Shown: piece by piece, positions 1-27,848 of the stretch
How positions within the stretch are numbered: the stretch's first letter is position 1
How the letters are laid out: each line of letters starts with the position of its first letter
Source: a virus
Lineage: Duplodnaviria > Caudoviricetes
Direction: 5' to 3' (one strand)
DNA length: 64,000 bases
IMG/VR virus record: IMGVR_UViG_3300023218_000040
Coordinates: 128,001-192,000 of that record
Position numbers and translations under genes: made by a program
The notes under the pieces: model-generated
What the model saw: the letters and a program-made list of their open reading frames with translations, nothing else
What the model was told of the DNA's origin: nothing
The model's database searches: none

Positions 1-453
1 GGAGGATGGTACGGCATAACAGCTTTTCTAATTCTGAGTAGAGACAAGCTACCGATTCAGAACATCCGGTCATATGATATTGATCCGTCGTGTGAAATCA
101 TAGCGGATAAAATCAACACCGCATGGGTATATGAGAAGTGGAAATTCAAAGCATTCACCGCTGATGTGAACCAGTTTAACTGGTACACGGAGTATGATTG
201 GATTCCAGATCTGGTTATCAACACTTCGGCTGAACACTTTGAGGAGGACGATTGGTATTACAGTCTGTTACCTCAGACATGTATTGCAGTTCAAGCTAAC
301 AATCAAGACAATGACTCACATACTAATCGAGTGGATACCTTGAAAGATATGGAGTCCAGGTTTCCCATGCGTGATGTTCTATACAACGGAGATCGGGTGT
401 ATGAGTATCCGGACAAAATGTATAGGAGATTCATGAGAATCGGTTTCAAATGA
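1..453 (+). CDS. Class I SAM-dependent methyltransferase-like protein, 5'-truncated by the window edge
   Basis: Frame 1 is open from base 1: GGWYGITAFL...RSYDIDPSCE...DLVINTSAEH; Gly-rich motif I, acidic YDID motif and NTSxEH motif. The track ORF 166..453 is only the C-terminal part. Confidence 0.55.
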   Translation, partial: GGWYGITAFLILSRDKLPIQNIRSYDIDPSCEIIADKINTAWVYEKWKFKAFTADVNQFNWYTEYDWIPDLVINTSAEHFEEDDWYYSLLPQTCIAVQANNQDNDSHTNRVDTLKDMESRFPMRDVLYNGDRVYEYPDKMYRRFMRIGFK

Positions 454-1067
454 TAGCCATCGACCTGTGTCAAACTGATGATCCGACAGCATGGAATATG
501 TTTCATGAGTTATGGATTGAAGCAAAAACAGGCTCAGATCGTAATGCCAGGAACTATGTGAACTTGAAAATTTTGGAGCACGATGCGTTCCATGTATTGA
601 TTGATGATAGGGCGATTGCTTTTGCTGGTGTATACAACGCTGGTATCTATCCGAACACAATAGCCCGTGTGCTGAACCGTGCATACTATGCTAGATCAGT
701 AAGACAATCAGGACTACCAACAAACAAGGACGGACGAAGAAAAGGAGGACTCCTATCTAAGTACGTTCTTCCAATGCAAGTGGAAGTCTGCCGACGAAAC
801 AGATCGGCTGCGTTCTTCTCAATCGAGTTCAATCGTCGCAGACGCACCATTCAGAATGTCACGTCCTGGATCAATGAGTACGACCGAACATATGAGGAGA
901 CATGGGAAGTTCTTTCGGACATGTATTTCACATGCCCAGAGTATGAAGATTGCATCAAGGATCCGACCTGTTGGCAAAATGTATCCGTGTTGAAGTTTCA
1001 AAGGGATTTCGAGTTCCCGTTACAGAGGAAAACTAGAGATGAGTGGAGACTATACTTTAGTAACTAA
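450..1067 (+). CDS. Hypothetical protein, possibly GNAT-like acyltransferase
   Basis: 205 aa; ATGA-coupled to upstream gene; IAFAGVY...ARVLNRAYY resembles GNAT-type beta-strand segments. Confidence 0.4.
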   Translation: MIAIDLCQTDDPTAWNMFHELWIEAKTGSDRNARNYVNLKILEHDAFHVLIDDRAIAFAGVYNAGIYPNTIARVLNRAYYARSVRQSGLPTNKDGRRKGGLLSKYVLPMQVEVCRRNRSAAFFSIEFNRRRRTIQNVTSWINEYDRTYEETWEVLSDMYFTCPEYEDCIKDPTCWQNVSVLKFQRDFEFPLQRKTRDEWRLYFSN

Positions 1068-1947
1068 GACCGCTCGTGCTATTGCTGACAGGGAATTCTT
1101 GGCATGGTACAACAGCGTTAATAACGTTTCATTGGCTGAAGCTAGAGCCATGTACATCCAGGATAACTTTCGTGACATGTACATTGACCGGTTCAGAAAT
1201 TGGGCAACTGGACATAGCACAAGTCCGATAATCGGTCTTGATGATTTTCCTAAAGTGGCCATCACGAATGCGATAACCCATTCCCTGGATTGCTTCGTAG
1301 CCAAGTGTCTCGGTCAAGGTCTAAATATTCGGGTCTTCCGTGGTGAATATCCGTACGTGAAAAGGCTTATGACGTTCCATGATAAGCCCCTGGTGTACTT
1401 GGATGATCAAGAAGTTCGTAGTTGTGATGCGGTGGTTCTATCGTATCCGTTTTCAGCCACCGGAGATAGACACTTCAGAACATTCGAACTGTTGAATGAA
1501 TGCTGTAAACTGAGAGTACCAGTATTCTTGGATTGTGCCTTTTGGCCTGCTTGTAGGGATGTACCTATTATCCTTGAGCACGAGTGCATCAGGCATGTAG
1601 CATTCAGCTTCAGTAAGTTGTTCCCGATGTCAGCGGTTAGGGTTGGCATCGAGTTCATGAGAGAGGACGTGCCACATCCAATGGATGTATTCAGCCTCGG
1701 TCACTACTACAACAGGCTGGGAGCGTATCTAGGTTATAAGTTGATGACACGTTTCTCACCCATGTATGTCACGAGTAGATATAGTGTAGCACAACATGCT
1801 ATTTGCAACGATTTAAAATTGATACCAAGCAAGACAGTAATCTTCGGATTGAGCCACGATTCAGTCTGGGATGAGTACTCACGTGAAGGTGTCATCAATA
1901 GACCATGCGTAACTAAAGGCATCGAGCGTTTGATGGGTGAAAAATGA
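1039..1947 (+). CDS. PLP-dependent aminotransferase-like protein (fold type I)
   Basis: LDCAF (PLP-binding Asp) and FSFSK (Schiff-base Lys) motifs followed by RVG. Confidence 0.6.
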   Translation: MSGDYTLVTKTARAIADREFLAWYNSVNNVSLAEARAMYIQDNFRDMYIDRFRNWATGHSTSPIIGLDDFPKVAITNAITHSLDCFVAKCLGQGLNIRVFRGEYPYVKRLMTFHDKPLVYLDDQEVRSCDAVVLSYPFSATGDRHFRTFELLNECCKLRVPVFLDCAFWPACRDVPIILEHECIRHVAFSFSKLFPMSAVRVGIEFMREDVPHPMDVFSLGHYYNRLGAYLGYKLMTRFSPMYVTSRYSVAQHAICNDLKLIPSKTVIFGLSHDSVWDEYSREGVINRPCVTKGIERLMGEK

Positions 1948-2690
1948 CAGACTTGACGCAACTTTTCCCTGGAAGAGACTTGAAGAGAGAGTGGAAAGAA
2001 CGATTTGGTTCCAAGGAGTTTGATGCCCCTGTTCGTGTGCTACCTTGGATTACGGTGGACACCGCTCGTTTGCAGGATTTCTATGAGAAGTGGAAGGGAC
2101 GTGATCATTCGGTATTCGAGGATGAGGTCATTGAGTATGCCTTTGGTGGAAGGTATTGCTCACCAGATGATTACTGGCCACTTGTTATTCATCACCCCAC
2201 AGACCTAGCGGTAGAGCTTCAGAGGCAACTGGATGAAGAACGTGGGGTGTCATGGTATGAACATCAGAAAGGACTATCTACCAAGAAGAGAATCAAGTCA
2301 CTCATTGATTTGAACAAGGACTATGATCCAATCATCGATGAGCGTAACTACACTAAGTTACCTGACCGATTGAATGAGACCTACATAGGTGAGTTGCTAG
2401 GACAGTTCAAAGCTACTCCGGTTAGGGCTAGGTTTGTCAAGCTTATGCCAGACCAAGAAGTAGGTGAGCATATCGATTATAGTCCGAAGTACGCATTGAA
2501 GGCACACATACCCGTATACACACATCCAGATGCAGTGCTTGGGTTTGAAGGACATGGCGACATACATTTGGTTCCAGGACATGCTTATGTGGTGAACACG
2601 GGTATTAAGCATTGGGCTAAGAACAACAGTAGAAAACAGCGAGTTCATTTAGTGGTCTCGCTTGACGGACAAGAGGACATAACATCATGA
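1944..2690 (+). CDS. Asp/Asn beta-hydroxylase-like 2OG-Fe(II) dioxygenase (paralog 1)
   Basis: RARFVKL..EHIDY (HxD), HIPV, NTGIKHWAKN...RVHLV. Confidence 0.75.
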   Translation: MTDLTQLFPGRDLKREWKERFGSKEFDAPVRVLPWITVDTARLQDFYEKWKGRDHSVFEDEVIEYAFGGRYCSPDDYWPLVIHHPTDLAVELQRQLDEERGVSWYEHQKGLSTKKRIKSLIDLNKDYDPIIDERNYTKLPDRLNETYIGELLGQFKATPVRARFVKLMPDQEVGEHIDYSPKYALKAHIPVYTHPDAVLGFEGHGDIHLVPGHAYVVNTGIKHWAKNNSRKQRVHLVVSLDGQEDITS

Positions 2691-3394
2691 GAAACGTGCT
2701 AGAAACAACGCAGGATCTTCCTCCTTTGGTAGAGAGACTGGATATCAAGGCTGATATCGGAAAGCTGTACGACCTTGCTAAGAAGGTCCACCTTGTGAAC
2801 TACAAGTACATACCAACGTTTCATTTTGAGAGCACACAGGAATCTCGAATCCATCTGTATGGTATTCGCAGCGGAATGCTGATCTCATCTCGTATGCAGG
2901 GCGGTGGGTATCAAGGATCCACCATGACTCTATCCGAAGAAGATGAGAAGCTGAGAATTAGAACCGAGTCCAGTCTAGAAGCGATTAAAGATTATCCAGA
3001 TCAGTACACAACAAGGACCAATATTTGCCTTGGATACGTGAATGATGTGATTGATTTCTTTCCAGAGTGCTGGAGAACTACGTTTTGGACTGAGACTCCT
3101 GTATACGGATACATTCCACATACCGACAACCCATCGGACAGTGCAGCCATCCATATCCCGTTGTACACCAATGCGTTTTGCTACATGGGCTATGAAACCC
3201 AACAGGTGTATCATCTACCAGCGGATGGTCATTGTTATTGGGTTAACACCCACATCCGCCACACTGCGTGGAATCATGGTAGCGAGCTACGCACACACCT
3301 ACGTATCAATCTACCTCGTGCTTGCTATGACAAGTACAAAAGCATGGAGAATGCGGTGATCAACTTCTCAGGCAAGTATCCAGATCCAGAATGA
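2687..3394 (+). CDS. Asp/Asn beta-hydroxylase-like 2OG-Fe(II) dioxygenase (paralog 2)
   Basis: PHTD, HIPLYTN, HLPADGHCYWVNT..HTAWNHG..RTHL. Confidence 0.75.
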   Translation: MRNVLETTQDLPPLVERLDIKADIGKLYDLAKKVHLVNYKYIPTFHFESTQESRIHLYGIRSGMLISSRMQGGGYQGSTMTLSEEDEKLRIRTESSLEAIKDYPDQYTTRTNICLGYVNDVIDFFPECWRTTFWTETPVYGYIPHTDNPSDSAAIHIPLYTNAFCYMGYETQQVYHLPADGHCYWVNTHIRHTAWNHGSELRTHLRINLPRACYDKYKSMENAVINFSGKYPDPE

Positions 3395-4023
3395 ATATTG
3401 TACGGACAAACATCAAAGTGGACATTGATACCCTTTATCGGGAGTATCAGATCATGTTGGAATCCCACACCGAGAGATACCTTGGTATTGACACTGAGGT
3501 TCCTTCTGGTGTTGACATCGATGATACCATCTCTAAGGAAAAGTATTGCTTTCGTGGAAGCTGGGCTCATGGTACAAGGTTTCACAGCACTAGAGAACTG
3601 ACCCAGGAAGAAGAAAGAGCAGTATCCAGCAACAGCGAAGAGGGGGCTAAGATTGATCATCTTTTTACTAGACGAAATGAGAAGTGTGTTGGGTACCTAA
3701 ATGATGTATTGGACTTTCTCTCTGATGCCTGGAGAGGAAGCTGGTGGACTCTTGATCCTGGGTTTTGTTACAAGCCACATAGTGATTCGCCATACGACTC
3801 CATGAGATGCCATATTGCGCTAACCACCAATCCATTCTGTCACATGGCATATGATGATGGCGAGTGTCATCACATCCCAGCAGATGGGCATATATACTTG
3901 TCTAGAACTGACATCAAGCATACCGCATGGAACATGGGTGAGTCTTCTAGAACACACATCATGATGAAAATGCCTCTACAATCTTGGAATCGATATGCCA
4001 ACCATTCATTATATTCCATTTAG
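3391..4023 (+). CDS. Asp/Asn beta-hydroxylase-like 2OG-Fe(II) dioxygenase (paralog 3)
   Basis: PHSD, HIALTTN, HIPADGH...HTAWNMG..RTHI. Confidence 0.75.
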   Translation: MNIVRTNIKVDIDTLYREYQIMLESHTERYLGIDTEVPSGVDIDDTISKEKYCFRGSWAHGTRFHSTRELTQEEERAVSSNSEEGAKIDHLFTRRNEKCVGYLNDVLDFLSDAWRGSWWTLDPGFCYKPHSDSPYDSMRCHIALTTNPFCHMAYDDGECHHIPADGHIYLSRTDIKHTAWNMGESSRTHIMMKMPLQSWNRYANHSLYSI

Positions 4024-4663
4024 GTTCCATCGAAGTGCCATTACTGTCGATCTGGAAAGATTGCAGGATTGGTATCTGAAGTATGCCTTTGCTAATCCTC
4101 CCCATAGATGGAACAGAGAAGAGGACGAGTACCAGACCCACGAGACGTTTGGAGAAGGTGCATATGGTTGGCAGTTGCACGAACCAAACTTGACTGGAGC
4201 GATTCCGATCAACGAGGAGGGTACTTCTGTTGATAGTCCCATCATGTCCAAGCGTGCCACATATCGGTTTGCGGATGGTGAGACTAGAAAGGTACGTAAT
4301 CAGGATTATACAATTCGTTCTGCTGGTCTTACTGGCTATTTGGCTGAGATACTTGATCACTTCCCGGAAGCATACCGCTGCGGTATGAAGGACATGTGTC
4401 CTGGCTTTGGGTATAAGGAGCACGTGGACCCTCCCCGTGGTAATCACTATCGAATTCATATTCCGTTGTACACGAATGAGGGTTGCAAACAAGAAGTATT
4501 GGGGGAGGAGCGTCACTTCGAGGCAGACGGTCATTTGTGGTTTATGAATACCGGAGTTTTGCATCGAGCATGGAACCACGGAACTACTCGTCGTCTCCAC
4601 ATCTATTGGCAGATGCCATTAGATACATTTTGGAAGTACCACGAGAAGAGTATGCAGCTATGA
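3995..4663 (+). CDS. Asp/Asn beta-hydroxylase-like 2OG-Fe(II) dioxygenase (paralog 4)
   Basis: EHVD, RIHIPLYTN, HFEADGH...HRAWNHG..RLHI. Confidence 0.75.
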   Translation: MPTIHYIPFRFHRSAITVDLERLQDWYLKYAFANPPHRWNREEDEYQTHETFGEGAYGWQLHEPNLTGAIPINEEGTSVDSPIMSKRATYRFADGETRKVRNQDYTIRSAGLTGYLAEILDHFPEAYRCGMKDMCPGFGYKEHVDPPRGNHYRIHIPLYTNEGCKQEVLGEERHFEADGHLWFMNTGVLHRAWNHGTTRRLHIYWQMPLDTFWKYHEKSMQL

Positions 4664-5310
4664 GTGGTTTGATTAAGACTAATGGGCACATTGATTTGGA
4701 TCGTCTTCGGAACTGGTACGAGGCGTTACAATACTATGAGTATCCAACTAGGAAGGATGACACAATCGACTACGCCAAAGACTACTTCGAGCCCGGAAGC
4801 AAGGGATACGGATGGGCGTTGCACGAGTTCGAGAAGCCGGATAACGTAGAACGAATTTGGTGGCGTAATCCAGATAGAAAAGATGATCCGATGATTCGCT
4901 CTAAGGGTCGGTTGTTTTTCAAAGATGGTAGCAAGGCATTCATTGGCAATGAGCACTTCACCAAACGTAGAGAAGTTTGCAATGGTTATATGGCCGACGT
5001 TCTAACTATTTTCCCAGAGGCATACCGTGGCGCTGTATGGGCGATGCATCCTGGGTTTAAGTTTGTTGAGCACATTGACTATCCACAAGAGCAAACATAT
5101 CGCTTCCATGTGGTTCTTTATACTAATCCAAATGCCATGTTCAAGCTAAGCGATGAGGTCGTGCACATGCCAGCGGACGGACATTTGTGGATGGTCAAAA
5201 CCGGTTCAGAAAAGCATACCGCTTGGAATTATGGAGAAACTGATCGAATTCACATTCATTGGCAGATGCCAATTGAGACTTGGGACAAGTATATCAGCGG
5301 ATTGACTTAA
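4660..5310 (+). CDS. Asp/Asn beta-hydroxylase-like 2OG-Fe(II) dioxygenase (paralog 5)
   Basis: Start placed at ATG 4660 (ATGA overlap with paralog 4 stop); EHID, RFHVVLYTN, HMPADGH...HTAWNYG..RIHI. Confidence 0.75.
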   Translation: MSGLIKTNGHIDLDRLRNWYEALQYYEYPTRKDDTIDYAKDYFEPGSKGYGWALHEFEKPDNVERIWWRNPDRKDDPMIRSKGRLFFKDGSKAFIGNEHFTKRREVCNGYMADVLTIFPEAYRGAVWAMHPGFKFVEHIDYPQEQTYRFHVVLYTNPNAMFKLSDEVVHMPADGHLWMVKTGSEKHTAWNYGETDRIHIHWQMPIETWDKYISGLT

Positions 5311-6106
5311 TCCCGTTTGCGATCTTCTTGGAAGTCTCTGGCCCAGGGTGTTGTAGATCTCTGGATACATCCACCTGAATGTCCGCTAGACTAGCTCTCA
5401 AGTAGTTATCGCTAAACGGAAAAAACTCTCGATACACTTCATCGTATGTCAGGCAGTGTGCATCGACCAGAGCCCATGCGTAGTCAGTTGAGTTTGATTT
5501 TAAGAACAGATCAACCATTGTGATATTCTTCAGTAGATTGTTTACATTGCTGGTGAAGTGAGACAGTTGCCCCTGAGCATCCATATGTGGAACGTACTTG
5601 TCTGATACTTTCACGGTCTGATCTTTCCAGTTTCTCAACCATTGGATTGGGTTACCTTCTTCGTCATAGATTTCCCGACGAGTGTGGTATGTCCAGTAGA
5701 TGAATACAAACGTTGGTTTGAAAAGAGGCACTGTACTCATGACTGTGCGTGCAATCAGATCGTTGCTGGCACCAGCAATTCCCATGTTGAATGGGACATG
5801 ACGTTCGTCATGTGCGAGATAGGGTATGGTATGCTCAACTGGTAGACCGTACCCCTGCATCACGGAGCATCCATAGTATGCCTCAGTGATTTTGTGCTTG
5901 GCTACCACGAATGGAGGAGCACGAAAGCCGTGGTGATTGAACCGATATCTGATGTCATCGGGGCCGTACGGAACTTCCTCTCCGGTTTCAATATTAAACT
6001 GATACTTCTCCTCACTGTCTCCCCTGAACCACTTCGACTCGTAGTTAGTGTATTCGGATAGATCAGGTAGCGTTGTCGGTGAGGTTATCTTGAACCCACG
6101 CATCAA
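5294..6106 (-). CDS. SGNH/GDSL-hydrolase-like protein
   Basis: YYGCSVMQG (block I Ser), NMGIAGASND (block II), C-terminal DLQHPG (DxxHP). Confidence 0.5.
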   Translation of the reverse strand: MMRGFKITSPTTLPDLSEYTNYESKWFRGDSEEKYQFNIETGEEVPYGPDDIRYRFNHHGFRAPPFVVAKHKITEAYYGCSVMQGYGLPVEHTIPYLAHDERHVPFNMGIAGASNDLIARTVMSTVPLFKPTFVFIYWTYHTRREIYDEEGNPIQWLRNWKDQTVKVSDKYVPHMDAQGQLSHFTSNVNNLLKNITMVDLFLKSNSTDYAWALVDAHCLTYDEVYREFFPFSDNYLRASLADIQVDVSRDLQHPGPETSKKIANGIKSIR

Positions 6107-6839
6107 ACTCTCCTAGATTAGTGATATACAAATTCTTATCAATCAGATTTCCCACCTTTTTGGGTAAACGATCACGGTCTCTTTCGTTCACATAGTTCTG
6201 CCAATCATCAAAGCCTAGCTCCGCACCAAGCATCTCGTATCGGTCCTTGTACTGAACCATATCCTCATACCATAGCAGATTATAGTCTACTCCAGGTATA
6301 TTCATTACACAACGTTTGGCTTCTTCGAGGGCACGAAAGTCGTACAGTATGATGTCACCAATTTCTTCAGTAAATTCACCGGGAGTGAATAGCTTCTCCT
6401 GTCCTTCCCTGCGAACCGTGAACCAGTTGGATATAATGGCAATTGCATAGGACAGTGCCCGTTCACGTTTATCTTTACGGTCAGTGATCACGAAGTGATA
6501 GTTATCGTAGAGGTACTGCAACCGGTCGTCATCACAATGCAGCCAGAAATAGGCTGGGAACTTGATGAAGTAAGTTTGGTCGTGATACTTCTTTAGTAAA
6601 TCCACCCGTCGATTGTATTCGAACTTCCGGTCGATTTCCATGTGCCATGCCTCGTGAGGAGACAGATGGCTGAGCCTAGTCGTTGCTACGGACCAACCGG
6701 TGTCATACACCCAATTGCGTAGCATGAAGTCTCCGAGGGCCGTGTGATAGCCGAGCTTACGATTTACGTACCGCCATAGGACAACCTGAAGCATGGTGCT
6801 CCCGGTTCTAGATCCAGAAAGGACGCAGTATCGCTTCAT
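6063..6839 (-). CDS. Sulfotransferase-like P-loop protein
   Basis: SGSRTGSTML PAPS-binding-loop-like motif, R-D...R-A-L-S, and LWYED; start chosen at ATG 6839. Confidence 0.5.
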   Translation of the reverse strand: MKRYCVLSGSRTGSTMLQVVLWRYVNRKLGYHTALGDFMLRNWVYDTGWSVATTRLSHLSPHEAWHMEIDRKFEYNRRVDLLKKYHDQTYFIKFPAYFWLHCDDDRLQYLYDNYHFVITDRKDKRERALSYAIAIISNWFTVRREGQEKLFTPGEFTEEIGDIILYDFRALEEAKRCVMNIPGVDYNLLWYEDMVQYKDRYEMLGAELGFDDWQNYVNERDRDRLPKKVGNLIDKNLYITNLGEFDAWVQDNLTDNAT

Positions 6840-6843
6840 GCAT

Positions 6844-9840
6844 TCACCGTATTTCCGACAGTGGGTGAGCATAATGTCGGTGTCTGCTCACCAAAAATCC
6901 AGTGCCCACTGCGGCATCAGCGAACGAAACGTTGTTAGTATTAATCAAGGAGTATTTATCATCCACTCCTGTATGAGTCTGCCTGATCTCATACATGCGG
7001 GCTTGATGTCTGAGCTTTTCGCCGTTGGTGAAGTATTCCTTCCAGTTGTGACTGACCTTGATGTGATTACCCGATTGCGGATCGTATGATGGGTCAAGCA
7101 TGATTCCCTGCTGGAAATTAATTAGGTCATCAAGTTTCCAAGACCAATTTACATGCTTGGACATATACTGGATCAGTCTTGAATAGAACACGTCCTTATG
7201 TCCACAAAGGCTGAGCCATAGCCAATCAGCGGGGTTCCTTCTTGTTGGTCCGAACCCGATTGCCTTTTGCATGAGATGATTTGATGGATGGTTTGGATAT
7301 GAATGTAATAGCTTTTTGAGCTTGTGTAGTCTACGACCAATAACACAGTCTTCTATCTCCATACATCCTGTGATCAGGTTTTCGTAGAACTTGCGATAGG
7401 ATACACCTTGCTCCCGGTTCAGGTATTCGGCAATGTATCTGGTGTAGTAGCCACAATGAAGAGCTTGAATAGCCCATGCGAATAGATAGCAATCAACCCA
7501 ATCGTCTTTCGACATGGTATCGGTTGCTATCACTACTTGGTTGGTTTCAATTTCTTCTGTATCTGTTCTTGGTAGTTCCAGGAACACGTTCTTGGTTACT
7601 GTCTTCAATCCATACCGGCTGACATGCTGGGCCATTGGGGCATTGGGCAATATGGAAAGCTCCCATACTCGGATATCCTCATGGTTGCCTGCTGCTATCA
7701 ATGAACAAATCCCATCGAGGAAGCTATCTTTAGTTTCCTCTGGAAGAGGCAGGATGAGTTCACTGTAGGTGTGGTATCCTTCTGCACGATATCTTTCTTG
7801 CAGTTCTCGGTATTTGTTCACACCGATGTTTTCCCTATCAACAGCTTCCAGTACACCTTCATCCATGCTTTGCATAGACAGCGTAGTTCCATAGATCATC
7901 CCCGCTTCCATGAGAGATTTGGTGATGTTGAATACCCGGTTGTTTGAGTTTTTTGCGAAGCTCCCTCGGATTTGCTTGGGGTATCCATACTCACTTTTGC
8001 TCCTGATCAAAGCGTTCGTGATTCCCTCATCAACTTTCAGCATACCAAAGTTGGCATCACAGATGTATACGTTATCGATCTGGTGTTCAGTGAAAAAGTC
8101 GAAGTCATGCCCGAGTCTCTTTAGGGAGAACTTCCTGACCTTATTCATCAATGATGATCCCCAATCGCAATTATGTGATTCTACTCCATGTACCGAATAA
8201 ACTGGTTGCTCTTCAGTTTCCAGATTAAACACATACCCGTCATAGTATTTCATTTTCACAGATTTCACTAATACTGTTTGATTTGGGTTATCAACAACAA
8301 ACTGGCCTGAAAATTCCACCCGATATGATGTGTTAACGCATACTTTCTTTCCTTGGATGTGTTCATCTAGTGATTTTCTTTGATATACACCAGCGTTCTT
8401 ACCAAACCTATTCAAGATTACTTGAAGTTGGAACGCTAAAGTTTTAGACACGGTGCTGGAAGCCCAACGCCCATTTGAATTTTCCTCGTTAATGTGAAAG
8501 GAGCCATCGCCTAAAAGATATCCTTCTATGAGTGGCTTTAGTAAAGAAGCGTCTAAATTCATCCAAAAATGGGGAATTCTCTTTGTTGTGGCCTTGTCAC
8601 CGAACATAGATTTGAATAAGTTTCCAAGAACACTGTTGCTTATAGATACTTGTGTAGCTGTGTTGGTATCTGATAAGTAAGCCTTTAAACCAAATATCGA
8701 ATACAGAGTGGATAATATCTCATTTTGAAGGTCTATTTGGTCTTTGTGAAATGTCCAATTTACAGTACACGAATTAGGTCTGTTTTTGTGAAAACAGACC
8801 GAGCCATCTGCTATGAATAGACCACAAAGCCTCATGAACTCTTTGGTAAGAGGTATGACCTTTGGTATTGGATTTTTACCCCCTGAATACCTAACCCATC
8901 CTATGTTCTCTTGAACATCCGGAAGAATATCTCCTACAGAAAGATGATCCTTCGGAATGGGGGATGGAGAAGATAGGACAAGTCTATCACCCACTCTTAT
9001 TTTAGAAGCATACTTCAATCCGTTCTCAGTGAACCACTCATGATCTGGTGTACAATGTATTTCTTGTCTACCTTGTACCTTAATAACAATCATATCACCA
9101 CGATATCGTCTTTTCATTTTTCTGGCTATTGGTTGCATTCCGTAAGAGGACCAAACATGAGAAACCGAATCAGACGATACAGCTTTTTCTATGGTCATTA
9201 CCCCATCATTCGTATAGACCCATGCATTATTGTCTAAACAAAACGAACATTGATATGGACATCCACGGTTGGTTTCCCAAGGAACCCAGAATTCTTGACC
9301 GGTCTCTTTTACTTCGGTTACGGCTGAATCCAGGAACTGATAAGGGCTATCTATTTCTATATCCTTTGGCAGCTTTTCTCCAAACAGAGATCTACTTGGT
9401 ACATGGAAATCGCTTGTGCTTGTTCCATGTAGTGGATACGCATCAGCCTCTGAAATATGAATCTTCAGAACATTAGCGAACGTTACCTCCCCCTCGCCGT
9501 GAACGATTATATCAACGTAAGGATGTTCCTTGAAGAAGTTTCCTGGTGTGTTGGGAACATGTGGACCACCTGCAACTACGTAAACCTGTGTATTCTTTTC
9601 TCGCAACAGTCGGGCGATCTTCATTTGCTTCTTGAAGTTCCAAACGTAGCAACTCAAAGCGAGAACATCGCAATCAATCTTAGCAACGATGTTCTCTGCT
9701 GTATCATCCAGAAATATGGGATCGCCCCACTCTAGTTGATTTGCTAAAGCGGGTTCGCACTCCTCGATGTAGCCCCTAAGCAATCCATGTATCAGAGGCA
9801 AGAACACCAAACGGTTCAAGCAGACGACTTGGACTTTCAT
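6844..9840 (-). CDS. Cobalamin (B12)-binding-domain radical SAM enzyme containing an intein
   Basis: N-terminal B12-binding domain (LSCYVWN...VAGGPH...IVHGEGE); ETNRGCPYQCSF-[intein]-CDWG; DANFG; SMQSMD; ELILPLPEET. Confidence 0.85.
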   Translation of the reverse strand: MKVQVVCLNRLVFLPLIHGLLRGYIEECEPALANQLEWGDPIFLDDTAENIVAKIDCDVLALSCYVWNFKKQMKIARLLREKNTQVYVVAGGPHVPNTPGNFFKEHPYVDIIVHGEGEVTFANVLKIHISEADAYPLHGTSTSDFHVPSRSLFGEKLPKDIEIDSPYQFLDSAVTEVKETGQEFWVPWETNRGCPYQCSFCLDNNAWVYTNDGVMTIEKAVSSDSVSHVWSSYGMQPIARKMKRRYRGDMIVIKVQGRQEIHCTPDHEWFTENGLKYASKIRVGDRLVLSSPSPIPKDHLSVGDILPDVQENIGWVRYSGGKNPIPKVIPLTKEFMRLCGLFIADGSVCFHKNRPNSCTVNWTFHKDQIDLQNEILSTLYSIFGLKAYLSDTNTATQVSISNSVLGNLFKSMFGDKATTKRIPHFWMNLDASLLKPLIEGYLLGDGSFHINEENSNGRWASSTVSKTLAFQLQVILNRFGKNAGVYQRKSLDEHIQGKKVCVNTSYRVEFSGQFVVDNPNQTVLVKSVKMKYYDGYVFNLETEEQPVYSVHGVESHNCDWGSSLMNKVRKFSLKRLGHDFDFFTEHQIDNVYICDANFGMLKVDEGITNALIRSKSEYGYPKQIRGSFAKNSNNRVFNITKSLMEAGMIYGTTLSMQSMDEGVLEAVDRENIGVNKYRELQERYRAEGYHTYSELILPLPEETKDSFLDGICSLIAAGNHEDIRVWELSILPNAPMAQHVSRYGLKTVTKNVFLELPRTDTEEIETNQVVIATDTMSKDDWVDCYLFAWAIQALHCGYYTRYIAEYLNREQGVSYRKFYENLITGCMEIEDCVIGRRLHKLKKLLHSYPNHPSNHLMQKAIGFGPTRRNPADWLWLSLCGHKDVFYSRLIQYMSKHVNWSWKLDDLINFQQGIMLDPSYDPQSGNHIKVSHNWKEYFTNGEKLRHQARMYEIRQTHTGVDDKYSLINTNNVSFADAAVGTGFLVSRHRHYAHPLSEIR
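8170..9240 (-). mobile_element. Intein (357 aa) with LAGLIDADG homing endonuclease, inside the CxxxCxxC motif
   Basis: Begins CLDNNAWV, block B TPDHEW, LCGLFIADG and LIEGYLLGDG motifs, ends VESHN before +1 Cys. Confidence 0.9.
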
Positions 9841-10589
9841 CTATGACTCTTCATTAACCCAAACGTTTCTAACACCCATGCACCCGGATCGAATTCCCAC
9901 TTCTCTATTCCGATACGATATTTGCTTGGGAACTTGTGATGATTATTGTGCCATCCCTCTCCTCCAGTGAAAAGGTTAGCAAACCAGTTGTTACGACTAG
10001 TCTTGTCCTTGGTTTCGTAGCTACGATACCCGTATGTATGGCTCACTGCGTTAATAAGTCCATACGCATGGAAGGCTATGGCACCAGGGATGCAGAATCC
10101 GAAAATCATAACCAGGGGATCAATCAGCCATAGCAATGCTGCCCACCCAATCAAGATGTGGAAGTAGTGCTTGTGTGCGATCATCACGTTCTTGTTCCTC
10201 AGCAAATCACGAATGAGTCTAGGCGGAATATGGAATGGCTTCCACAGGTGAAAGTATGTTCTCCAGAACCCTAGAACTATTGGTGAGTGAGGATCTTTGT
10301 CCGTGTCTACGTGAGCATGATGTAGACGATGGGATCCTGCCCATCCTAGTGGTGTGCCACCACAAGCGAGACAGCCGACATAGATCATAACTGTCTCAAA
10401 CCACTTATATGTCTCGAAACTCTTGTGCGACAGGTAGCGATGAAATCCCAGGCTAATCCCAATCGTGCCAATGAATAGCCAAACAAAATAGGATACAATC
10501 CATGCCCACCAGGGGCCATAGATGAATGCCGGAATCAACATCAGGTGGTTGAATCCGTGAATGAGTCGTAGTTTATTCGAAAAGTTCAT
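9837..10589 (-). CDS. Membrane acyl-lipid/acyl-CoA delta-9-type fatty acid desaturase
   Basis: Three His boxes HRYLSH, HRLHH, HNNHH; hydrophobic TM segments; start at ATG 10589 (ATGA overlap). Confidence 0.9.
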   Translation of the reverse strand: MNFSNKLRLIHGFNHLMLIPAFIYGPWWAWIVSYFVWLFIGTIGISLGFHRYLSHKSFETYKWFETVMIYVGCLACGGTPLGWAGSHRLHHAHVDTDKDPHSPIVLGFWRTYFHLWKPFHIPPRLIRDLLRNKNVMIAHKHYFHILIGWAALLWLIDPLVMIFGFCIPGAIAFHAYGLINAVSHTYGYRSYETKDKTSRNNWFANLFTGGEGWHNNHHKFPSKYRIGIEKWEFDPGAWVLETFGLMKSHR

Positions 10590-11245
10590 GACATTATTTG
10601 TTTGATAGCGTCGAAATGACAACCGACAAGAATTGATACTCGGGATTCATCCCCGATGACTCGAACACGATGTCGATAACCTGTGTTACAAAACCATACA
10701 TGACCAGGAAGCATAATGCGTTGTTCGATATCACTCTTCTTCTTGATTTCAAAGATTTGGTTTCCACTAATCATGATTTGCACCCGACATGCATAGCTTG
10801 TATTAGTATCTATGTGCCAGTCCAATTCTGCTCCGGGTGGCAGAATAGCAATCCTTGCACGGAAGTGTGGATTGACATACGGGGTGATAAAGGAACGAAA
10901 CTTCAGACCCTCTTTAGTGTAAGTATCGTACTCCCACTCATCAGGGACATCAATTGACGAGTTGCCGGTAACTTGCAGTAGATATTGCTTGTATTCAGTA
11001 GGAAAGTACGTCTTCAACTTGCAGGCTTGCGCAATCTCGTAGCGGTCGGAATTCTGAATGTCGTTGTAGTCCTTCGGCAATCCGTTCACAAGGAACATGA
11101 TTTCCTCATGAATAGTACGAACCACAGTTGGATCCACAGTTCCGAGTTTATAGAACAGCGGAAGTTTTTGACGATCAGGGCCATTCTCTCCACGAACACG
11201 GGCTTTGATTCGTTCTGGATCTTGTAAAGCGCATTTATCATTCAT
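10586..11245 (-). CDS. Asp/Asn beta-hydroxylase-like 2OG-Fe(II) dioxygenase (paralog 6)
   Basis: RARIAILPPG..WHIDTN, NTGYRHRV...RVSI. Confidence 0.75.
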   Translation of the reverse strand: MNDKCALQDPERIKARVRGENGPDRQKLPLFYKLGTVDPTVVRTIHEEIMFLVNGLPKDYNDIQNSDRYEIAQACKLKTYFPTEYKQYLLQVTGNSSIDVPDEWEYDTYTKEGLKFRSFITPYVNPHFRARIAILPPGAELDWHIDTNTSYACRVQIMISGNQIFEIKKKSDIEQRIMLPGHVWFCNTGYRHRVRVIGDESRVSILVGCHFDAIKQIMS

Positions 11246-11278
11246 GTTGATATTTAGATACTTTGGGGTTAGATTTCA

Positions 11279-12223
11279 ATGGTGGATATGAGCAAAGTAA
11301 TACGACTTGAACACCGGCATGAGGACGGCGCTAAGCACGTACTCATCGAGTGGAGTCTTGGTAACAAATGTAATTACGCTTGCTCGTATTGTCCTGCTCA
11401 TCTCCACGATGGGTCCATCGGTTGGCACCCCTATGAGAATCTAATTGGCTTCCTAGATACTGCCCACTCCCATTATTACGATAAGCTGGGCAAGAGTCTC
11501 ATGGTTCAATACACTGGAGGAGAACCAACAGTCTATCCCCAGTTCCGTGATATGGTCAAGCATGCACACGAAAAAGGCTATTTGCAAGGAATGATTTCCA
11601 ACGGATCTCGAACCATTAGGTTCTGGAAGAGTATTAGAGAGTTCTTTACAAAAATAAGCCTGACATTCCATCGTGAGTTTGCAGACCCAGAACACTATAT
11701 CAATGTAGTCCGCTGTGTATCAGAGACAACTCCTGTGCACTGCAATATTACGATGATTCCAAAGGAGTTCGACAACAACCTCAAGATGGCTGAGAGACTG
11801 TGGGAGATAGATAACGTGTCAGTTCTTCTCAAGCCGCTTCGTGAGGAGTTCAAGGGCGAACTCTACCCCTACACACCTGAGCAACTAGAAGTCATGGCAC
11901 GAGCCAGGGGAAAGGCTCCTGTGCACGTAAATTGGCCTCGCTTCGGCATGAAGGTAGTCTACGAGGACGGCACCAAAGAAAACTGCCGAGTTAACGAGAT
12001 GGTCATTCAGAAGCAGAACCGATGGAAGGGCTGGGAATGTGCTGCTGGAGTTGAACAGGTAGTCGTAACCGTAGAAGGTGATGTGTTCATTGGCAGATGT
12101 CGTGTCGGTGGATCAATCGGCAACCTCAATACCGGAGTGAATTTTCCTGACAAAAATGTAATCTGTACGAAAGATGAGTGTTGGTGTTTGACTGACATGT
12201 TGACTACGAAGGTAAGGCGATGA
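11279..12223 (+). CDS. Radical SAM protein with C-terminal twitch/SPASM-like Cys cluster
   Basis: CNYACSYC, TGGEPT, SNGSR; C-terminal CAAG...GDVF..RC...C..C.C. Confidence 0.85.
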   Translation: MVDMSKVIRLEHRHEDGAKHVLIEWSLGNKCNYACSYCPAHLHDGSIGWHPYENLIGFLDTAHSHYYDKLGKSLMVQYTGGEPTVYPQFRDMVKHAHEKGYLQGMISNGSRTIRFWKSIREFFTKISLTFHREFADPEHYINVVRCVSETTPVHCNITMIPKEFDNNLKMAERLWEIDNVSVLLKPLREEFKGELYPYTPEQLEVMARARGKAPVHVNWPRFGMKVVYEDGTKENCRVNEMVIQKQNRWKGWECAAGVEQVVVTVEGDVFIGRCRVGGSIGNLNTGVNFPDKNVICTKDECWCLTDMLTTKVRR

Positions 12224-13131
12224 TTTACATCAGGGTGTATGACGAGGATGGTGATTGGAATGTCGAAGATCCAATCAATTTGAAGGCTACGGGCAGAAAC
12301 CGGTTTGAGGGTTGGAAGTGTTCTGTGGGTCAAAGGAACCTGTATATCGATTGGGATGGTAACATTTTTCGTGGTACGTGTCGAGTAGGTGGCAAGGTTG
12401 GGAATGTATACGAGGAAGACTTTCCGATGCCCGATGGTTGGGTCACTTGTGATAAGAAAACCTGCAACTGCGTGACTGAAGTTCAGCTACCGAAGGCAAA
12501 GGATTTACAAGACCCAGAAAGAAACAGCATTATCCCCATGCAAGACTTCCCTGTCTATGTTCAGTGGGATGTAGGTCGTCGGTGCAATTTTGATTGCAGC
12601 TACTGTCCTTCCTTTGTCCACAACGATCACGAGGAACATCAGAATCTTGATATCCTAAAGGACGTAGTGGTTCGACTTCATGATTCTTTTCGTGAGCCAA
12701 TCACATTCAACTTCGCTGGTGGTGAACCAACCACTCATCCGGACTTTATCGAGTGGTGCGAGTTCATCAAGAAGCTAGGGCACACAATCAATGTTCAGAC
12801 GAATGGTGCTCAGGTTGCAAGCTACTGGAAGAAACTGGCTGAAGTTGTCAATCACATCTCGATATCAGTGCATTTGGAGTTTATGACAGAAAAAAGATTG
12901 ATGCAAACCATCAATGCCATCATGGAGACTTCTTGTCTAATAGAAGTGAAAATCATGGCACACCCTGACCATTGGGACAAAGCCATGCGTTTTAAGTCGC
13001 TGATGGAACAAATTCCGTTGAATAAGGGGGTGATGCTTCCGCTTCGAACGAGCCTTGGCCGCAACACAGAATTGATGGAATATACACCAGAGCAGATGAA
13101 GGAGATGGGAACGATAAATACTCCTGATTAG
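12220..13131 (+). CDS. Radical SAM protein with N-terminal twitch/SPASM-like Cys cluster
   Basis: N-terminal CSVG...DGNIF..TC...C..C.C, then CNFDCSYC, AGGEPT, QTNG. Confidence 0.85.
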   Translation: MIYIRVYDEDGDWNVEDPINLKATGRNRFEGWKCSVGQRNLYIDWDGNIFRGTCRVGGKVGNVYEEDFPMPDGWVTCDKKTCNCVTEVQLPKAKDLQDPERNSIIPMQDFPVYVQWDVGRRCNFDCSYCPSFVHNDHEEHQNLDILKDVVVRLHDSFREPITFNFAGGEPTTHPDFIEWCEFIKKLGHTINVQTNGAQVASYWKKLAEVVNHISISVHLEFMTEKRLMQTINAIMETSCLIEVKIMAHPDHWDKAMRFKSLMEQIPLNKGVMLPLRTSLGRNTELMEYTPEQMKEMGTINTPD

Positions 13132-13141
13132 GAGGTTTCCC

Positions 13142-13933
13142 ATGTCCGATATTGACCTACAATACACTTTGATGCTTGAAGGTAGATTAAATCTGATGCA
13201 TCTGCCACCAGGAGCAATCGCATGGCTGTGGGATCGCCCTAGCAAGCAGGTAGATGCCGCTGAATCTTTGGCTATTGCGGCACGAGCTTACGATAATCCG
13301 ATCACTGACGCTTCCCTACTTCGTACTGACCAGAATATCCTCATCTTGAAGTGTGAGGGTGGCGAGTGTTTCCGTATCTATCCTGATGGCGGATACAGCT
13401 ATGATAACACTCCAATGGACATGGGTGGCTGTTCGTCTGTGCTACGTGGTGACTGGTGTGGTTGTCCACACAAGGCTACTGAGACCAATCCACTTGCAGA
13501 TCGTGAACATGATAGCATGGAAGAGAAGATGGGTAACGATGAGCACCTGGATGATGAAGATCCAATGGCTGCACAGGATGTGATTCATAATATTACCAAC
13601 CTTGATGCTGAGCCATATATGGATGAGGACGTAGGTAATGAAGAACACCTGGATGACGAAGACCCAGAAGCCGGATGGTCACCACACAATATCACCAATC
13701 TGGCTGGTGAGCCAACCCGTGATGTAGATGAAGATCAGGGTGGAGATTGGGGTGGCCCAGGAACTGGTGATGGGATGGGAACTGGAACTCCGTATATCGG
13801 AGTAACCTTCATTCCGGATGAGGAGCTTGAGGCTGCTATGAACTATGAAGGCGATGATGAGTTCGCTAAGGAATGTGGTAATTATTCGGATGACGAGCTT
13901 GAGGAGCTAGCAAGGGTCACCGGGACGTATTAA
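13142..13933 (+). CDS. Acidic hypothetical protein with a duplicated ~33-aa motif
   Basis: AGGAGG RBS, TAAATA at 13115; GNxEHLDDEDP...HNITNL..EP twice (13532-13603, 13634-13702). Confidence 0.7.
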   Translation: MSDIDLQYTLMLEGRLNLMHLPPGAIAWLWDRPSKQVDAAESLAIAARAYDNPITDASLLRTDQNILILKCEGGECFRIYPDGGYSYDNTPMDMGGCSSVLRGDWCGCPHKATETNPLADREHDSMEEKMGNDEHLDDEDPMAAQDVIHNITNLDAEPYMDEDVGNEEHLDDEDPEAGWSPHNITNLAGEPTRDVDEDQGGDWGGPGTGDGMGTGTPYIGVTFIPDEELEAAMNYEGDDEFAKECGNYSDDELEELARVTGTY

Positions 13934-14568
13934 GTTACGTATTCGATTTTCACACCAACCTCGTCTAGCATTTCTTTAGAAATTTTGAAGTCTTCTTTCC
14001 ATCTATCAGGGATTGCAGTTTCTAGAATATAGACTGTTTCAATTTGAGATTGAATAATTGCCCTCGTACATCTTGTACACGGGTGTAAGGTGGTATAGAT
14101 ATCGCTACCAGTAACTTTAGCACCTATTTTTGCTGCGTTAAGTATGGCGTTCTCTTCTGCATGACTAGTATATTCGTACTTCAGTGGTCTAACATGTCTT
14201 TCTTCTATATCGTCATTGATACCACGAGGGAACCCATTATAACCGGTCGAAACGATAACTCGATCACGGACAATCAGAGCACCAACTTTTGTTGAACGAT
14301 CCTTAGATCTGCTAGAAGCTAGTATCGCCATATTCATGAAATATTGATGCCATGATAAATTGGCACTCGCCATTAGATAACGTGTGGCATGTATTGTGCT
14401 GTCATCAAGCAAACCTATACCTTGACTGCATTTATGACATAGAAGCCCACGAACTATTCCAGTAGAATGATTGTGATCTACACAAAGCGGATGTCCTCTA
14501 TTTTCCGTTGTACCACAAATAGCACATTTGTGACCCTGCTTTTCTAGTAATTCATCATATTGTTTCAT
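13930..14568 (-). CDS. Endonuclease VII-like His-Me finger fused in frame to dCMP deaminase
   Basis: CAIC...VDHNH.TG.VRGLLC..C then WHQYFM..A...RSKD..TKVGA...GYNG...HAEENAI...PC..C. Confidence 0.85.
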   Translation of the reverse strand: MKQYDELLEKQGHKCAICGTTENRGHPLCVDHNHSTGIVRGLLCHKCSQGIGLLDDSTIHATRYLMASANLSWHQYFMNMAILASSRSKDRSTKVGALIVRDRVIVSTGYNGFPRGINDDIEERHVRPLKYEYTSHAEENAILNAAKIGAKVTGSDIYTTLHPCTRCTRAIIQSQIETVYILETAIPDRWKEDFKISKEMLDEVGVKIEYVT

Positions 14569-26430: not shown

Positions 26431-27834
26431 ATGAATGATGACAATACACCGGAGGTCGGGACCGACGGTCTAAAGGCTGCGATGGACCATGCCGTCACCC
26501 CTTCCGGGCTACTGACTTGTCTGGAGCACCTTCTGAGTAGCCGAACCACTGACGGCGGATCCAAAGAGCAGGCAGCCGTGATGGTTTGGGGTGCCATGGG
26601 CATCGGCAAGACCGACGTGGTTCGCAGCGTCGGCAAGCTGTGGGGCATGCGAATCGTGGCTCTCCACCTTCCGCAGTTCGATCCCACCGACATCAAGGGC
26701 ATCCCCGTCAAGATGGAGGACGACAAGGTGGTTTGGGTTCCGTCGAGCTACCTCCCGCAGTTCGTCACCCGGCGCATCACCGAGTCGAAGACCGCTGAGA
26801 CCATCGATTTCCACTGGCCCGCCGCCGATGGAGTCATGGTGCACGTTCGCAAGGACGGCAAGACCGTGGGTCGCTTCAACGACCAGATGAACGGCGACCT
26901 GAACAAGCTCGAACTCAATGTCGAGATCAACGAGGGTGAAGTCACGGTCAGCGGTAAGGATCTTCAGGGTCTGGAGATCGAGGTCGTGGACAAGGCCATT
27001 ATCTTCCTGGACGAGTTGAGCGCTGCGGTGCCCGAGGTCCAGAACGCTGCCCTCCAGCTTGTGCTGGACCGCCGGGTGGGCGAGTACGACGTGCCGCCCT
27101 TCACGCCCATCGTCGCCGCCGGTAACCGGGAGTCGGACGCTGCGTTCGTAAGCCCGATGTCGGCTCCGCTGTGCAACCGCTTCGTCCACCTTCGCCTCGT
27201 GCCGAGCCTGGACGACTGGTTGGAGTGGGCGATGCTCAACCGGGTCCACCACGAAATCCTGGGCTACCTTCAGTGGAAGAAGAGCGGTCGCCTCTTTCAG
27301 TTCAACGCCGACTCGATGACCGAGGGTGACTGCGGATTCCCGACGCCCCGTTCGTGGTCGAAGCTCTCCGAGCAGATGCACGGCATCCACAGGTTGCCCA
27401 AGGCAGTGCAGGATTCCATCATCACCGGCTTCGTCGGAAAGGCTGTCGGTCACGAGTTCATCCAGTATCGTGAGGTCTGCGAGCTACTGCCGAGCACTGA
27501 CGATATTCTTCAGGGTAAGAACGTGGAAATCTCGGATGCTCTCGACGTGGGTGCGAAGTACGGTCTGGCGACGGCACTGTGCTACGCCATCAAGGAATAC
27601 TTTGACAAATACTACGACGAGAGCATCAGTGACGTAGAAAAGCAGCCTGATGAGTGGCGCACGGCGACCAAGGCGTTCTGTAACTTCATCGACCAGCACC
27701 TGGGTCGGGAGATGACGGTGCTCTGCGTGCACATCGTGTCGAAGCACCTGGGTATCTCCTTCACCACGTTCCGTGGCACGGAGTTCCAGGGCTTCGCCAA
27801 GAAGTACCGCACCATCCTCCGCAAGACCGTTTAA
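26431..27834 (+). CDS. MoxR/dynein-like AAA+ ATPase
   Basis: GAMGIGKT (Walker A), D.TDIKGIP, IIFLDE (Walker B), AAGNR, PLCNRF, FPTPRSW. Confidence 0.85.
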   Translation: MNDDNTPEVGTDGLKAAMDHAVTPSGLLTCLEHLLSSRTTDGGSKEQAAVMVWGAMGIGKTDVVRSVGKLWGMRIVALHLPQFDPTDIKGIPVKMEDDKVVWVPSSYLPQFVTRRITESKTAETIDFHWPAADGVMVHVRKDGKTVGRFNDQMNGDLNKLELNVEINEGEVTVSGKDLQGLEIEVVDKAIIFLDELSAAVPEVQNAALQLVLDRRVGEYDVPPFTPIVAAGNRESDAAFVSPMSAPLCNRFVHLRLVPSLDDWLEWAMLNRVHHEILGYLQWKKSGRLFQFNADSMTEGDCGFPTPRSWSKLSEQMHGIHRLPKAVQDSIITGFVGKAVGHEFIQYREVCELLPSTDDILQGKNVEISDALDVGAKYGLATALCYAIKEYFDKYYDESISDVEKQPDEWRTATKAFCNFIDQHLGREMTVLCVHIVSKHLGISFTTFRGTEFQGFAKKYRTILRKTV

Positions 27835-27848
27835 CGAGAGATCATCTC

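Follow-up and report, generated by a model that had tools for sequence, protein, structure and literature searches.

We analysed a stretch of 64,000 nucleotides, here called the window, that covers bases 128,001-192,000 of the 204,014-bp IMG/VR virus record IMGVR_UViG_3300023218_000040 and opens with an island of tightly packed genes for tailoring enzymes. That the island is phage-encoded was confirmed, as the record belongs to the IMG/VR virus set and encodes a T4-type major capsid protein, gp23 (PF07068, 283 bits). Recognizing that the record also encodes a T4-type RNA ligase, a polynucleotide kinase (PNK) and other phage functions, and that one island protein, the cobalamin (B12)-dependent radical S-adenosylmethionine (SAM) enzyme, has been recorded on a 360-kb contig as well, we conclude that the source is a T4-like jumbo phage, with the record at hand being 55% complete according to CheckV. 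Phage_sheath_1 had no match in the record, which has no bearing here since T4-type sheaths belong to another family. The stretch was present in 4 DNA sequencing runs, all from one study, and no near-identical DNA was found in the phage records searched. In what follows, G000 denotes the phage's own record and labels of the form L0xx denote the related loci and contigs compared with it.

The original prediction had placed about 15 tightly coupled tailoring enzymes at 1-13,131 of the window. All 15 were found there, and each family assignment was tested and upheld; the limits, by comparison, were too narrow, with the island being cut by the window edge and running about 10 kb further upstream. 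The complete gene block spans about 24 kb and fills the gap between the tail-fibre genes and a block of PNK and S41-peptidase genes at which it ends, beginning about 10 kb before the window with a cassette of four glycosyltransferase-like genes behind the tail-fibre genes. Window positions 1-13,933 thus represent the variable tailoring half of this block, and the upstream half is the conserved one. The coupling proved as tight as claimed: from a giant open reading frame (ORF) of 3426 amino acids through the fifth hydroxylase gene, 28 co-directional plus-strand ORFs run for 32 kb with no gap larger than 35 nt and with overlap at 20 of the 27 junctions. In the enzymes checked, the catalytic motifs were intact. 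Within the 204-kb record, all matches to PF05118 (6/6), PF04055 (2/2) and PF00487 (1/1) fall inside the block, and among the island proteins only the desaturase has transmembrane segments. Scans for sigma-70 promoters and terminators gave counts at or below shuffle expectation, and T4 late-type motifs (TATAAATA, CTAAATA) showed no enrichment, being uninformative for the island.

The most numerous members are the 2-oxoglutarate (2OG)/Fe(II) beta-hydroxylases. Six such dioxygenases had been claimed, and all six genes exceed the Pfam gathering cut-off for PF05118 (25.6-38.6 bits vs. 22.6 bits); five lie in a row on the plus strand (1944-2690, 30 bits; 2687-3394; 3391-4023; 3995-4663; 4660-5310, the last with its start set at ATG 4660 by orthologue comparison) and the sixth, at 10,586-11,245 on the minus strand, is the first gene of a minus-strand operon. 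A seventh paralogue, not in the original prediction, lies 103-717 nt upstream of the window and is tied to the family by BLAST matches to its paralogues only. All seven share the invariant residues H176, D178, H223 and R233, i.e., the HxD...H...R pattern of an iron triad and a 2OG-binding basic residue, and their best solved relative is Cpz10 (PDB 7V4F; profile E 4.8e-21 over ~110 residues). Conservation among the paralogues is uneven: hydroxylase 1 has orthologues in all related loci at 38-63% identity and hydroxylase 2 has a 54% match in L037, whereas the best L011 and L013 matches of hydroxylases 3 and 4 are only 28-36% identical and land on the hydroxylase-5 orthologue. A related-locus search with the orthologue alignment returned one IMG/VR locus only.

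Preceding the hydroxylases are three genes for enzymes of heteroatom chemistry, which, like the last two genes of the minus-strand operon, received no annotation from Pfam. The first, for a class I SAM-dependent methyltransferase of 209 amino acids, starts 176 nt before the window (-176 to 453, plus strand); its AlphaFold2 (AF2) model, with a predicted local distance difference test (pLDDT) value of 75, adopts the class I SAM fold, all of the top 50 Foldseek matches in PDB were methyltransferases (template modelling [TM] scores 0.5-0.6), and orthologues were found in L011, L013, L020 and L037, along with a weak match to a 'methyltransferase' of Pelagibacter phage Mosig (MT647606). The second (450-1067, plus strand) encodes a GNAT-like acyltransferase of 205 amino acids, as judged by Atlas features of 0.93-0.95 and TM scores of 0.56-0.62 to GNAT clusters, with orthologues at 38-61% identity in L011, L013 and L020; at the equivalent position in L037, beside a PF05118 gene, lies a gene carrying PF00583, with no sequence match between the two proteins. 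The third (1039-1947, plus strand) encodes a short pyridoxal phosphate (PLP) protein of 302 amino acids resembling class I/II aminotransferases, given that about half of its homologues carry PF00155 and that SFSK lysine and FLDCAF motifs are present; it is 27% identical to a 'putative aminotransferase' of Mosig, and a related-locus search with this protein gave no relative.

On the minus strand, hydroxylase 6 is followed in its operon by four further genes. A membrane desaturase of the Delta9 type (DesA-like, 261 amino acids, 9837-10,622) matches PF00487 at 81.7 bits and has the His boxes HRYLSH, HRLHH and HNNHH together with three hydrophobic segments, and it scores 91 bits to the DesA equivalog NF049918, a profile of 385 positions, below the cut-off of 400 bits. 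In tblastn against phage records, the only matches of this desaturase were to Mosig and to two records that in fact consist of Acinetobacter chromosomal DNA; one record labelled 'Acinetobacter phage MD-2021a' (L019, CAKLQH020000002.1) carries trp, folC, accD, btuB and baeSR genes and looks like a bacterial chromosome rather than a phage. Beyond the B12 radical SAM gene (6844-9840) lie 1) a gene for a Stf0-type sulfotransferase-like protein at 6063-6839, with a probable start at Met12 of a 269-residue frame (6063-6872), showing Atlas features of 0.94-0.96 and TM scores of 0.6-0.7 to Stf0-type clusters, a GSRTGST loop and orthologues at 54-75% identity, and with no Pfam match at E <= 0.01; and 2) a gene for an SGNH/DUF6071-like esterase or transferase of 270 amino acids at 5294-6106, with Atlas TM scores of 0.65-0.71 to GDSL and DUF6071 clusters and with GCS, GASND and DLQH blocks.

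The island closes on the plus strand with two radical SAM genes, A (11,279-12,223) and B (12,220-13,131). These are paralogues that share the CxxxCxxC core and a twitch/SPASM-like domain with five conserved Cys, which is C-terminal in A and N-terminal in B, a permutation of domains within the tandem pair; the radical SAM B orthologues of L011 and L037 likewise have it at the N-terminus. Neither has a Pfam SPASM match, and matches to NF033640 and STM4011 are below their cut-offs. The syntenic last gene (13,142-13,933, plus strand) encodes a 263-residue protein with a conserved 105-residue N-terminal domain containing five Cys and a highly acidic, repeat-bearing disordered tail; in 52 representative relatives the tail ranges from 115 to 722 amino acids, and the gene always lies at the PNK-side end of the island. 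We considered this protein as a glycan acceptor and rejected it, as its N-x-T sequons are not conserved in relatives. At the right-hand boundary itself (13,930-14,568, minus strand), an endonuclease VII domain (residues 2-59) is fused to a dCMP/cytidine deaminase domain (residues 72-182).

The family proposed for the B12 radical SAM enzyme was right, although a homing intein of 358 amino acids inside the gene had gone unseen. The predicted cobalamin-dependent radical SAM methylase is made as a precursor of 998 amino acids (exteins ~640), with a PF02310 B12-binding domain (49.6 bits) and a radical SAM core bearing CxxxCxxC; its score of 257.7 bits to NF033712, the KedN5 subfamily with a curated cut-off of 700 bits, makes it a relative rather than a member of that subfamily. 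The intein (8167-9240, minus strand; residues 201-558) starts at Cys201, ends with His-Asn at 557-558, is followed by Cys559 as the +1 residue, carries LAGLIDADG endonuclease and Hint domains (PF14890, PF14528 and TIGR01445), and has a GC content of 0.38 vs. 0.45 for the extein. Alignment with intein-less orthologues (64-75% identical) places the insertion between CPYQCSF and the third cysteine of CxxxCxxC, and since the motif CPYQCSF/C is restored by splicing only, we conclude that no cluster can bind before splicing. Three other homologues harbor inteins of 131-367 amino acids at the identical point. An intein that splits precisely the radical SAM cluster motif and recurs at this point in four homologues provides a clean case of splicing-gated cluster binding. 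The phage appears to be intein-rich: an IMPDH/GMP-reductase-type gene (inosine monophosphate dehydrogenase, IMPDH; 720 amino acids, window 23,002-25,164, plus strand) is also interrupted, with Hint, Intein_splicing and weak LAGLIDADG matches between two IMPDH segments, and ThyX (G000 73,014-75,860, minus strand; loci L021-L023) lies inside an open frame of 1059 amino acids with its Pfam match in three separated pieces, suggesting one or two further inteins.

While the list of tailoring enzymes was correct, the original prediction missed what lies upstream, hidden by the window edge: tail-fibre genes, a glycosyltransferase cassette, a carbamoyltransferase and an AAA+ ATPase. The same-strand gene string begins with the 3426-residue ORF, followed by five ORFs that include a Peptidase_G2-like fibre end and then by a Ser/Thr/Gly-rich protein of 316 amino acids. 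Next come two paralogous GT8-like proteins (280 and 318 amino acids), with a profile match to glycogenin (GT8, E 2.5e-5) and weakly to the Skp1 galactosyltransferase, and a 295-residue protein with a 227-residue paralogue, both GT-A-like. For the 295-residue family, the model (pLDDT 90.7) has a GT-A or nucleotide-diphospho-sugar transferase fold with SunS, PBCV-1 A64R and TarP as the top Foldseek matches (VIA Z 9-10), the VDGDN motif is invariant, and metagenomes contain more than 7,900 relatives at >50% identity. Further members are a radical SAM enzyme with an N-terminal twitch domain (NF033640 at 298 bits, above the cut-off), two DUF6071 proteins, a NodU-type carbamoyltransferase with its best score to NodU, and an AAA+ ATPase of the proteasomal/FtsH/CDC48 type. 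In G000, L011 and L013, the carbamoyltransferase gene is immediately preceded by that of a conserved basic microprotein of ~27-37 amino acids ending in DPF[IV]Y, with an additional Asp in G000 (G000 123,279-123,386, plus strand; L011 14,188-14,301 and L013 8337-8420, both minus strand). Single-sequence phmmer searches against PDB with six unannotated proteins gave no match, as did the A2 profile against PDB.

The order of these genes bears on the notion of a common pathway. Based on the contexts of the B12 radical SAM orthologues and on tblastn of all island proteins against those contigs, we found that the homologues are not scattered, as would have refuted the idea, but co-occur at equivalent places and in an unchanged order in several diverged phage contigs, and this synteny supports the earlier proposal that the genes may form one pathway. 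The same architecture is present in four lineages, namely this phage, L011, L013 and L015 together with L037, with parts of it in L020, L034, L035 and Mosig; L011, L013 and L015+L037 share a layout of giant gene, fibre genes, glycosyltransferase cassette, AAA gene, tailoring genes, 263-residue gene, PNK and S41 peptidase. In L011 and L013, hydroxylase 6, desaturase, B12 radical SAM, sulfotransferase-like and SGNH-like genes follow one another in the same order with overlapping junctions, and L020 has, in order, the fibre end, the GT8-like pair, the GT-A gene, DUF6071, the carbamoyltransferase, the GT-A paralogue, the methyltransferase, the GNAT gene and hydroxylases. In each of the seven phage contigs, PF05118 genes are found at a distance of one or two genes from a B12 radical SAM gene, which in L015, L034 and L035 is followed directly by two of them; these three contigs also have a 105-residue ORF that is absent from G000. 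In Mosig, Asp_Arg_Hydrox, FA_desaturase and short aminotransferase genes adjoin one another beside the tail-fibre genes, and a carbamoyltransferase and a methyltransferase are encoded as well. Altogether, about 12 families form a core in which gene order and overlapping start/stop junctions are preserved across lineages although orthologues share only 40-70% identity. No clear orthologue was seen in L011 and L013 for the PLP gene, the DUF6071 pair, radical SAM A and hydroxylases 3 and 4. In the distant contigs L032 and L033, a short PLP protein again has PF05118 genes on one side and, on the other, an array of six to eight radical SAM genes. One of these, the 173-kb ENA contig L032, contains at least eight tandem radical SAM genes with a Trp halogenase, a ketoacyl synthase and an AMP-binding enzyme alongside, and adjoining genes for thymidylate synthase and dihydrofolate reductase (DHFR).

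Based on these features, the block probably builds and decorates one sugar-containing product. The original prediction had named virion proteins, host envelope lipids or glycans, and a small molecule as possible targets, and of these the gene context favors the virion or glycoconjugate option most. Our leading view, which we hold tentatively and at somewhat less than an even chance, is that of a build-and-decorate pathway for a glycoconjugate, with the fibre proteins of the phage itself as the most likely target. We favor it because of the four glycosyltransferase-like core genes, the gene string shared with the fibre genes, the soluble nature of the enzymes, the unfoldase-type AAA+ ATPase and the published prediction that tail-collar or collagen-like proteins are the targets of gene neighbourhoods with a beta-hydroxylase, a sulfotransferase and an acetyltransferase (Iyer, Abhiman, de Souza, Aravind 2010, PMC2938197); in addition, gene content changes rapidly from one relative to the next, as would suit a function at the interface of phage-host recognition. 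During infection, the soluble enzymes would act in the cytoplasm on one glycoconjugate, for which the likeliest acceptor would be the fibre proteins encoded on the same uninterrupted 32-kb gene string. The hydroxylases may create or edit hydroxyl sites, the transferases would add sugars, and the remaining enzymes may then methylate, acylate, aminate, carbamoylate and sulfate the glycoconjugate. The tailoring half would supply both C-H chemistry, by up to seven beta-hydroxylases, a B12 C-methylase that presumably becomes active only after intein splicing, the desaturase and two twitch radical SAM enzymes, and heteroatom chemistry, by the methyltransferase, GNAT, PLP, sulfotransferase and SGNH enzymes. 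A more specific version, for which we have clearly less confidence and which we regard as doubtful, is a dedicated virion-decoration pathway in which the hydroxylases, the spliced B12 methylase and the radical SAM enzymes edit the fibres, with glycosylation following to yield a carbamoylated, sulfated, methylated and acylated glycan; if true, receptor-binding fibres would wear a chemical coat that evolves fast and has no described counterpart in any virus.

Several observations weigh against a fibre-linked glycoconjugate: 1) no acceptor was identified, and no collagen-like G-X-Y repeats or known domains were found in the giant protein and the fibre-like proteins; 2) no nucleotide-sugar synthesis genes were seen in the block, and the PLP protein belongs to a type other than the DegT sugar aminotransferases; 3) the closest solved relatives of the hydroxylases, Cpz10 and free-proline hydroxylases, act on small molecules, and human AspH did not appear among these solved relatives; 4) the bacterial proteins closest to the B12 radical SAM enzyme, at 40-44% identity, are encoded in carbapenem-type clusters; 5) it is not obvious what a Delta9-type membrane desaturase would do on a protein-linked glycan, although in the conserved operon its gene is flanked by those for hydroxylase 6 and the B12 radical SAM enzyme.

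This last point leads to the strongest competing explanation, that the island remodels the host envelope during infection by editing a membrane lipid or a lipid-linked glycan such as lipid A/lipopolysaccharide (LPS), an aminolipid or a glycolipid, which we consider unlikely. Acyl chains would undergo LpxO/OlsC-like hydroxylation, Delta9 desaturation and B12-dependent C-methylation, with sugars, sulfate and carbamoyl groups being placed on head groups, and the outcome could be to block superinfection or to stop progeny from adsorbing to debris. PF05118 does include the lipid hydroxylases LpxO and OlsC. The sole membrane protein of the island is a desaturase with the three His boxes canonical for the Delta9 type, and its gene shows translational coupling to hydroxylase 6 and to the B12 radical SAM gene in G000, L011 and L013 and adjoins Asp_Arg_Hydrox in Mosig; cyanophage viral fatty-acid desaturases (vFADs) are proven Delta9 lipid desaturases (PMC5776448), NodU and Stf0, which the carbamoyltransferase and the sulfotransferase-like protein resemble, both act on glycolipids, and LPS-type genes have been reported in the hypervariable clusters of pelagimyophages (PMC7029224). 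However, the hydroxylases here are soluble and without the LpxO membrane anchor, no acyltransferase, flippase or lipid-carrier gene was recognised, and the gene string shared with the fibre genes would be left unexplained. Moreover, the desaturase found only Mosig among genuine phage records, so its kinship with the characterised cyanophage vFADs, to which it is not close, is unsupported.

We think it improbable that the island is a loose set of independent auxiliary genes, i.e., a hyperplastic landing zone for unrelated host-derived genes with no common product, in which the desaturase, for example, would adjust membrane fluidity and the 2OG oxygenases would tune 2OG/succinate or repair nucleic acids. 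The variable gene content described above would agree with this, as would the designation of such regions as hypervariable and the separate roles proposed for 2OG oxygenases (PMC3037559). The GC content of the island equals that of the genome (0.459 vs. 0.466), showing no sign of a single recent import, and this too has been counted in favor of independent genes. Against it stand the core of about 12 families with its preserved order and overlapping junctions, the confinement of every PF05118 and radical SAM match of the record to the block, and the recurrence of B12 radical SAM/PF05118 and PLP/PF05118 adjacencies in distant contigs.

A small diffusible metabolite, namely a tailored phage natural product of amino-acid-, nucleoside- or lipopeptide-like nature that acts on the host or on competitors, seems distinctly improbable to us. 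It would account for the fact that the closest characterised homologues come from natural-product pathways (Cpz10 of caprazamycin, the KedN5 family, and ThnK/L/P-type enzymes in carbapenem-like clusters), and it would accommodate L032, with its halogenase, ketoacyl synthase and AMP-binding enzyme beside a radical SAM/PF05118/PLP block; secondary-metabolite roles were also proposed by Iyer et al. for the cyanophage dioxygenase arrays (PMC2938197). However, G000, L011 and L013 contain no scaffold-forming enzyme (non-ribosomal peptide synthetase, polyketide synthase or cyclase), exporter or immunity gene; no conserved small ORF that might be a precursor peptide was found in the island within the window, the only conserved microprotein being the one that accompanies the carbamoyltransferase; and four glycosyltransferase-like genes and the AAA+ ATPase are core members. 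Nucleic-acid hypermodification, with the transferases and tailoring enzymes decorating phage DNA bases or tRNA, is very improbable: although phage glycosyltransferases, carbamoyltransferases, PLP and radical SAM enzymes are known in DNA hypermodification (PMC8989533), and the island adjoins the endonuclease VII-dCMP deaminase fusion, PNK and RNA ligases, the 204-kb record has no ThyA-type hydroxymethylase (an absence that is weak evidence in a record about 55% complete), the presence of ThyX implies ordinary deoxythymidine monophosphate (dTMP), and no 5-hydroxymethyluridine (5-hmU) kinase-like gene was recognised.

Elsewhere in the window, a protein of 584 amino acids (40,262-42,016, plus strand) combines an Acb1 phosphodiesterase domain (78 bits), active against the cyclic-oligonucleotide-based anti-phage signalling system (CBASS), with a PcfJ-like domain, and a MoxR-like AAA_5 ATPase gene at 26,431-29,324 (plus strand) is followed within the same span by a gene for a DUF2201 metallopeptidase/von Willebrand factor A protein, a family also found near the related island of L032.

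Regions of this type have been met before. A 'hyperplastic region' of T4-like cyanomyophages was reportedly described by Millard in 2009. In cyano- and pelagimyophages, a hypervariable cluster downstream of VrlC comprises fibre genes, glycosyltransferases and radical SAM cassettes (Zaragoza-Solas 2020, PMC7029224), and cyanomyophages carry 2OG oxygenases in multiple copies along with Asn beta-hydroxylases and carbamoyltransferases (PMC3037559). Our island resembles these clusters in that it belongs to a T4-like phage with gp23, lies behind a giant gene and fibre genes (the putatively VrlC-like ORF of 3426 residues and the Peptidase_G2-like fibre end), varies in content among relatives, and contains glycosyltransferase folds, radical SAM cassettes, Asp/Asn beta-hydroxylases and a carbamoyltransferase. 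It differs in the much larger phage genome, the seven paralogous hydroxylases, the intein-bearing ThnK/KedN5-like B12 radical SAM gene, and the placement of sulfotransferase-like and SGNH-like genes in one operon with a desaturase. With the tandem dioxygenase arrays described in cyanophages (PMC2938197) it shares tandem 2OG oxygenases, co-occurrence of sulfotransferase, acetyltransferase and methyltransferase genes, and nearby fibre-type proteins; unlike the Syn9 array, which mixes at least five unrelated dioxygenase families, all seven hydroxylases here belong to one PF05118/Cpz10-like family. Compared to the published neighbourhoods, no collagen-like or tail-collar substrate was found in the present block, whereas radical SAM enzymes, a desaturase and glycosyltransferases are added. 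In a search of the literature, we found no paper determining the product of any such cluster.

Freeman reportedly described in 2023 the glycosylation of capsids and tail tubes in mycobacteriophages. Glycosylation is also known from the capsid glycosylation protein A64R of PBCV-1, from the glucosylation of hydroxylysine by Mimivirus L230, and from Skp1, which is hydroxylated and then glycosylated in the cytoplasm. Like the virion systems, our island has glycosyltransferase genes beside structural genes, with the GT-A model resembling A64R and the GT8-like pair matching glycogenin, and as with Skp1 a 2OG hydroxylase would be combined with glycosyltransferases following the same logic, as judged by gene position and fold similarity. 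B12 and twitch radical SAM enzymes, carbamoyltransferase, sulfotransferase and desaturase are features of the island that those systems are not known to have. Among individual enzymes, Cpz10 (PDB 7V4F; PMC9814697) shares the small PF05118-type 2OG/Fe fold but acts on a nucleoside-antibiotic intermediate in Streptomyces, with the other genes of the caprazamycin pathway not being in the island. The class B methylases ThnK, ThnL, ThnP and KedN5 share with the phage enzyme a B12-binding domain and radical SAM core, the phage enzyme being 40-44% identical to genes inside carbapenem-like clusters and NF033712 being its best NCBIfam match; they differ from it in gene context, and the phage enzyme is below the 700-bit cut-off and has its cluster motif interrupted by an intein.

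The more than 7,900 relatives of the 295-residue glycosyltransferase-like family suggest that thousands of aquatic T4-like phages carry such blocks behind their fibre genes. Should the block decorate the virion, host range and escape from recognition by hosts or grazers would be governed at one more, new level; should it remodel host lipids or LPS, it would constitute a new kind of auxiliary metabolism. In comparison with the clusters already known descriptively, the present example is rich in oxygenases rather than radical SAM enzymes, and what sets it apart is the expansion of the hydroxylases, the intein in the radical SAM motif, and an operon of desaturase and B12 radical SAM genes in which a membrane desaturase, a B12 methylase and hydroxylases are linked across diverged phages, representing a compact five-gene unit that is amenable to expression and assay.

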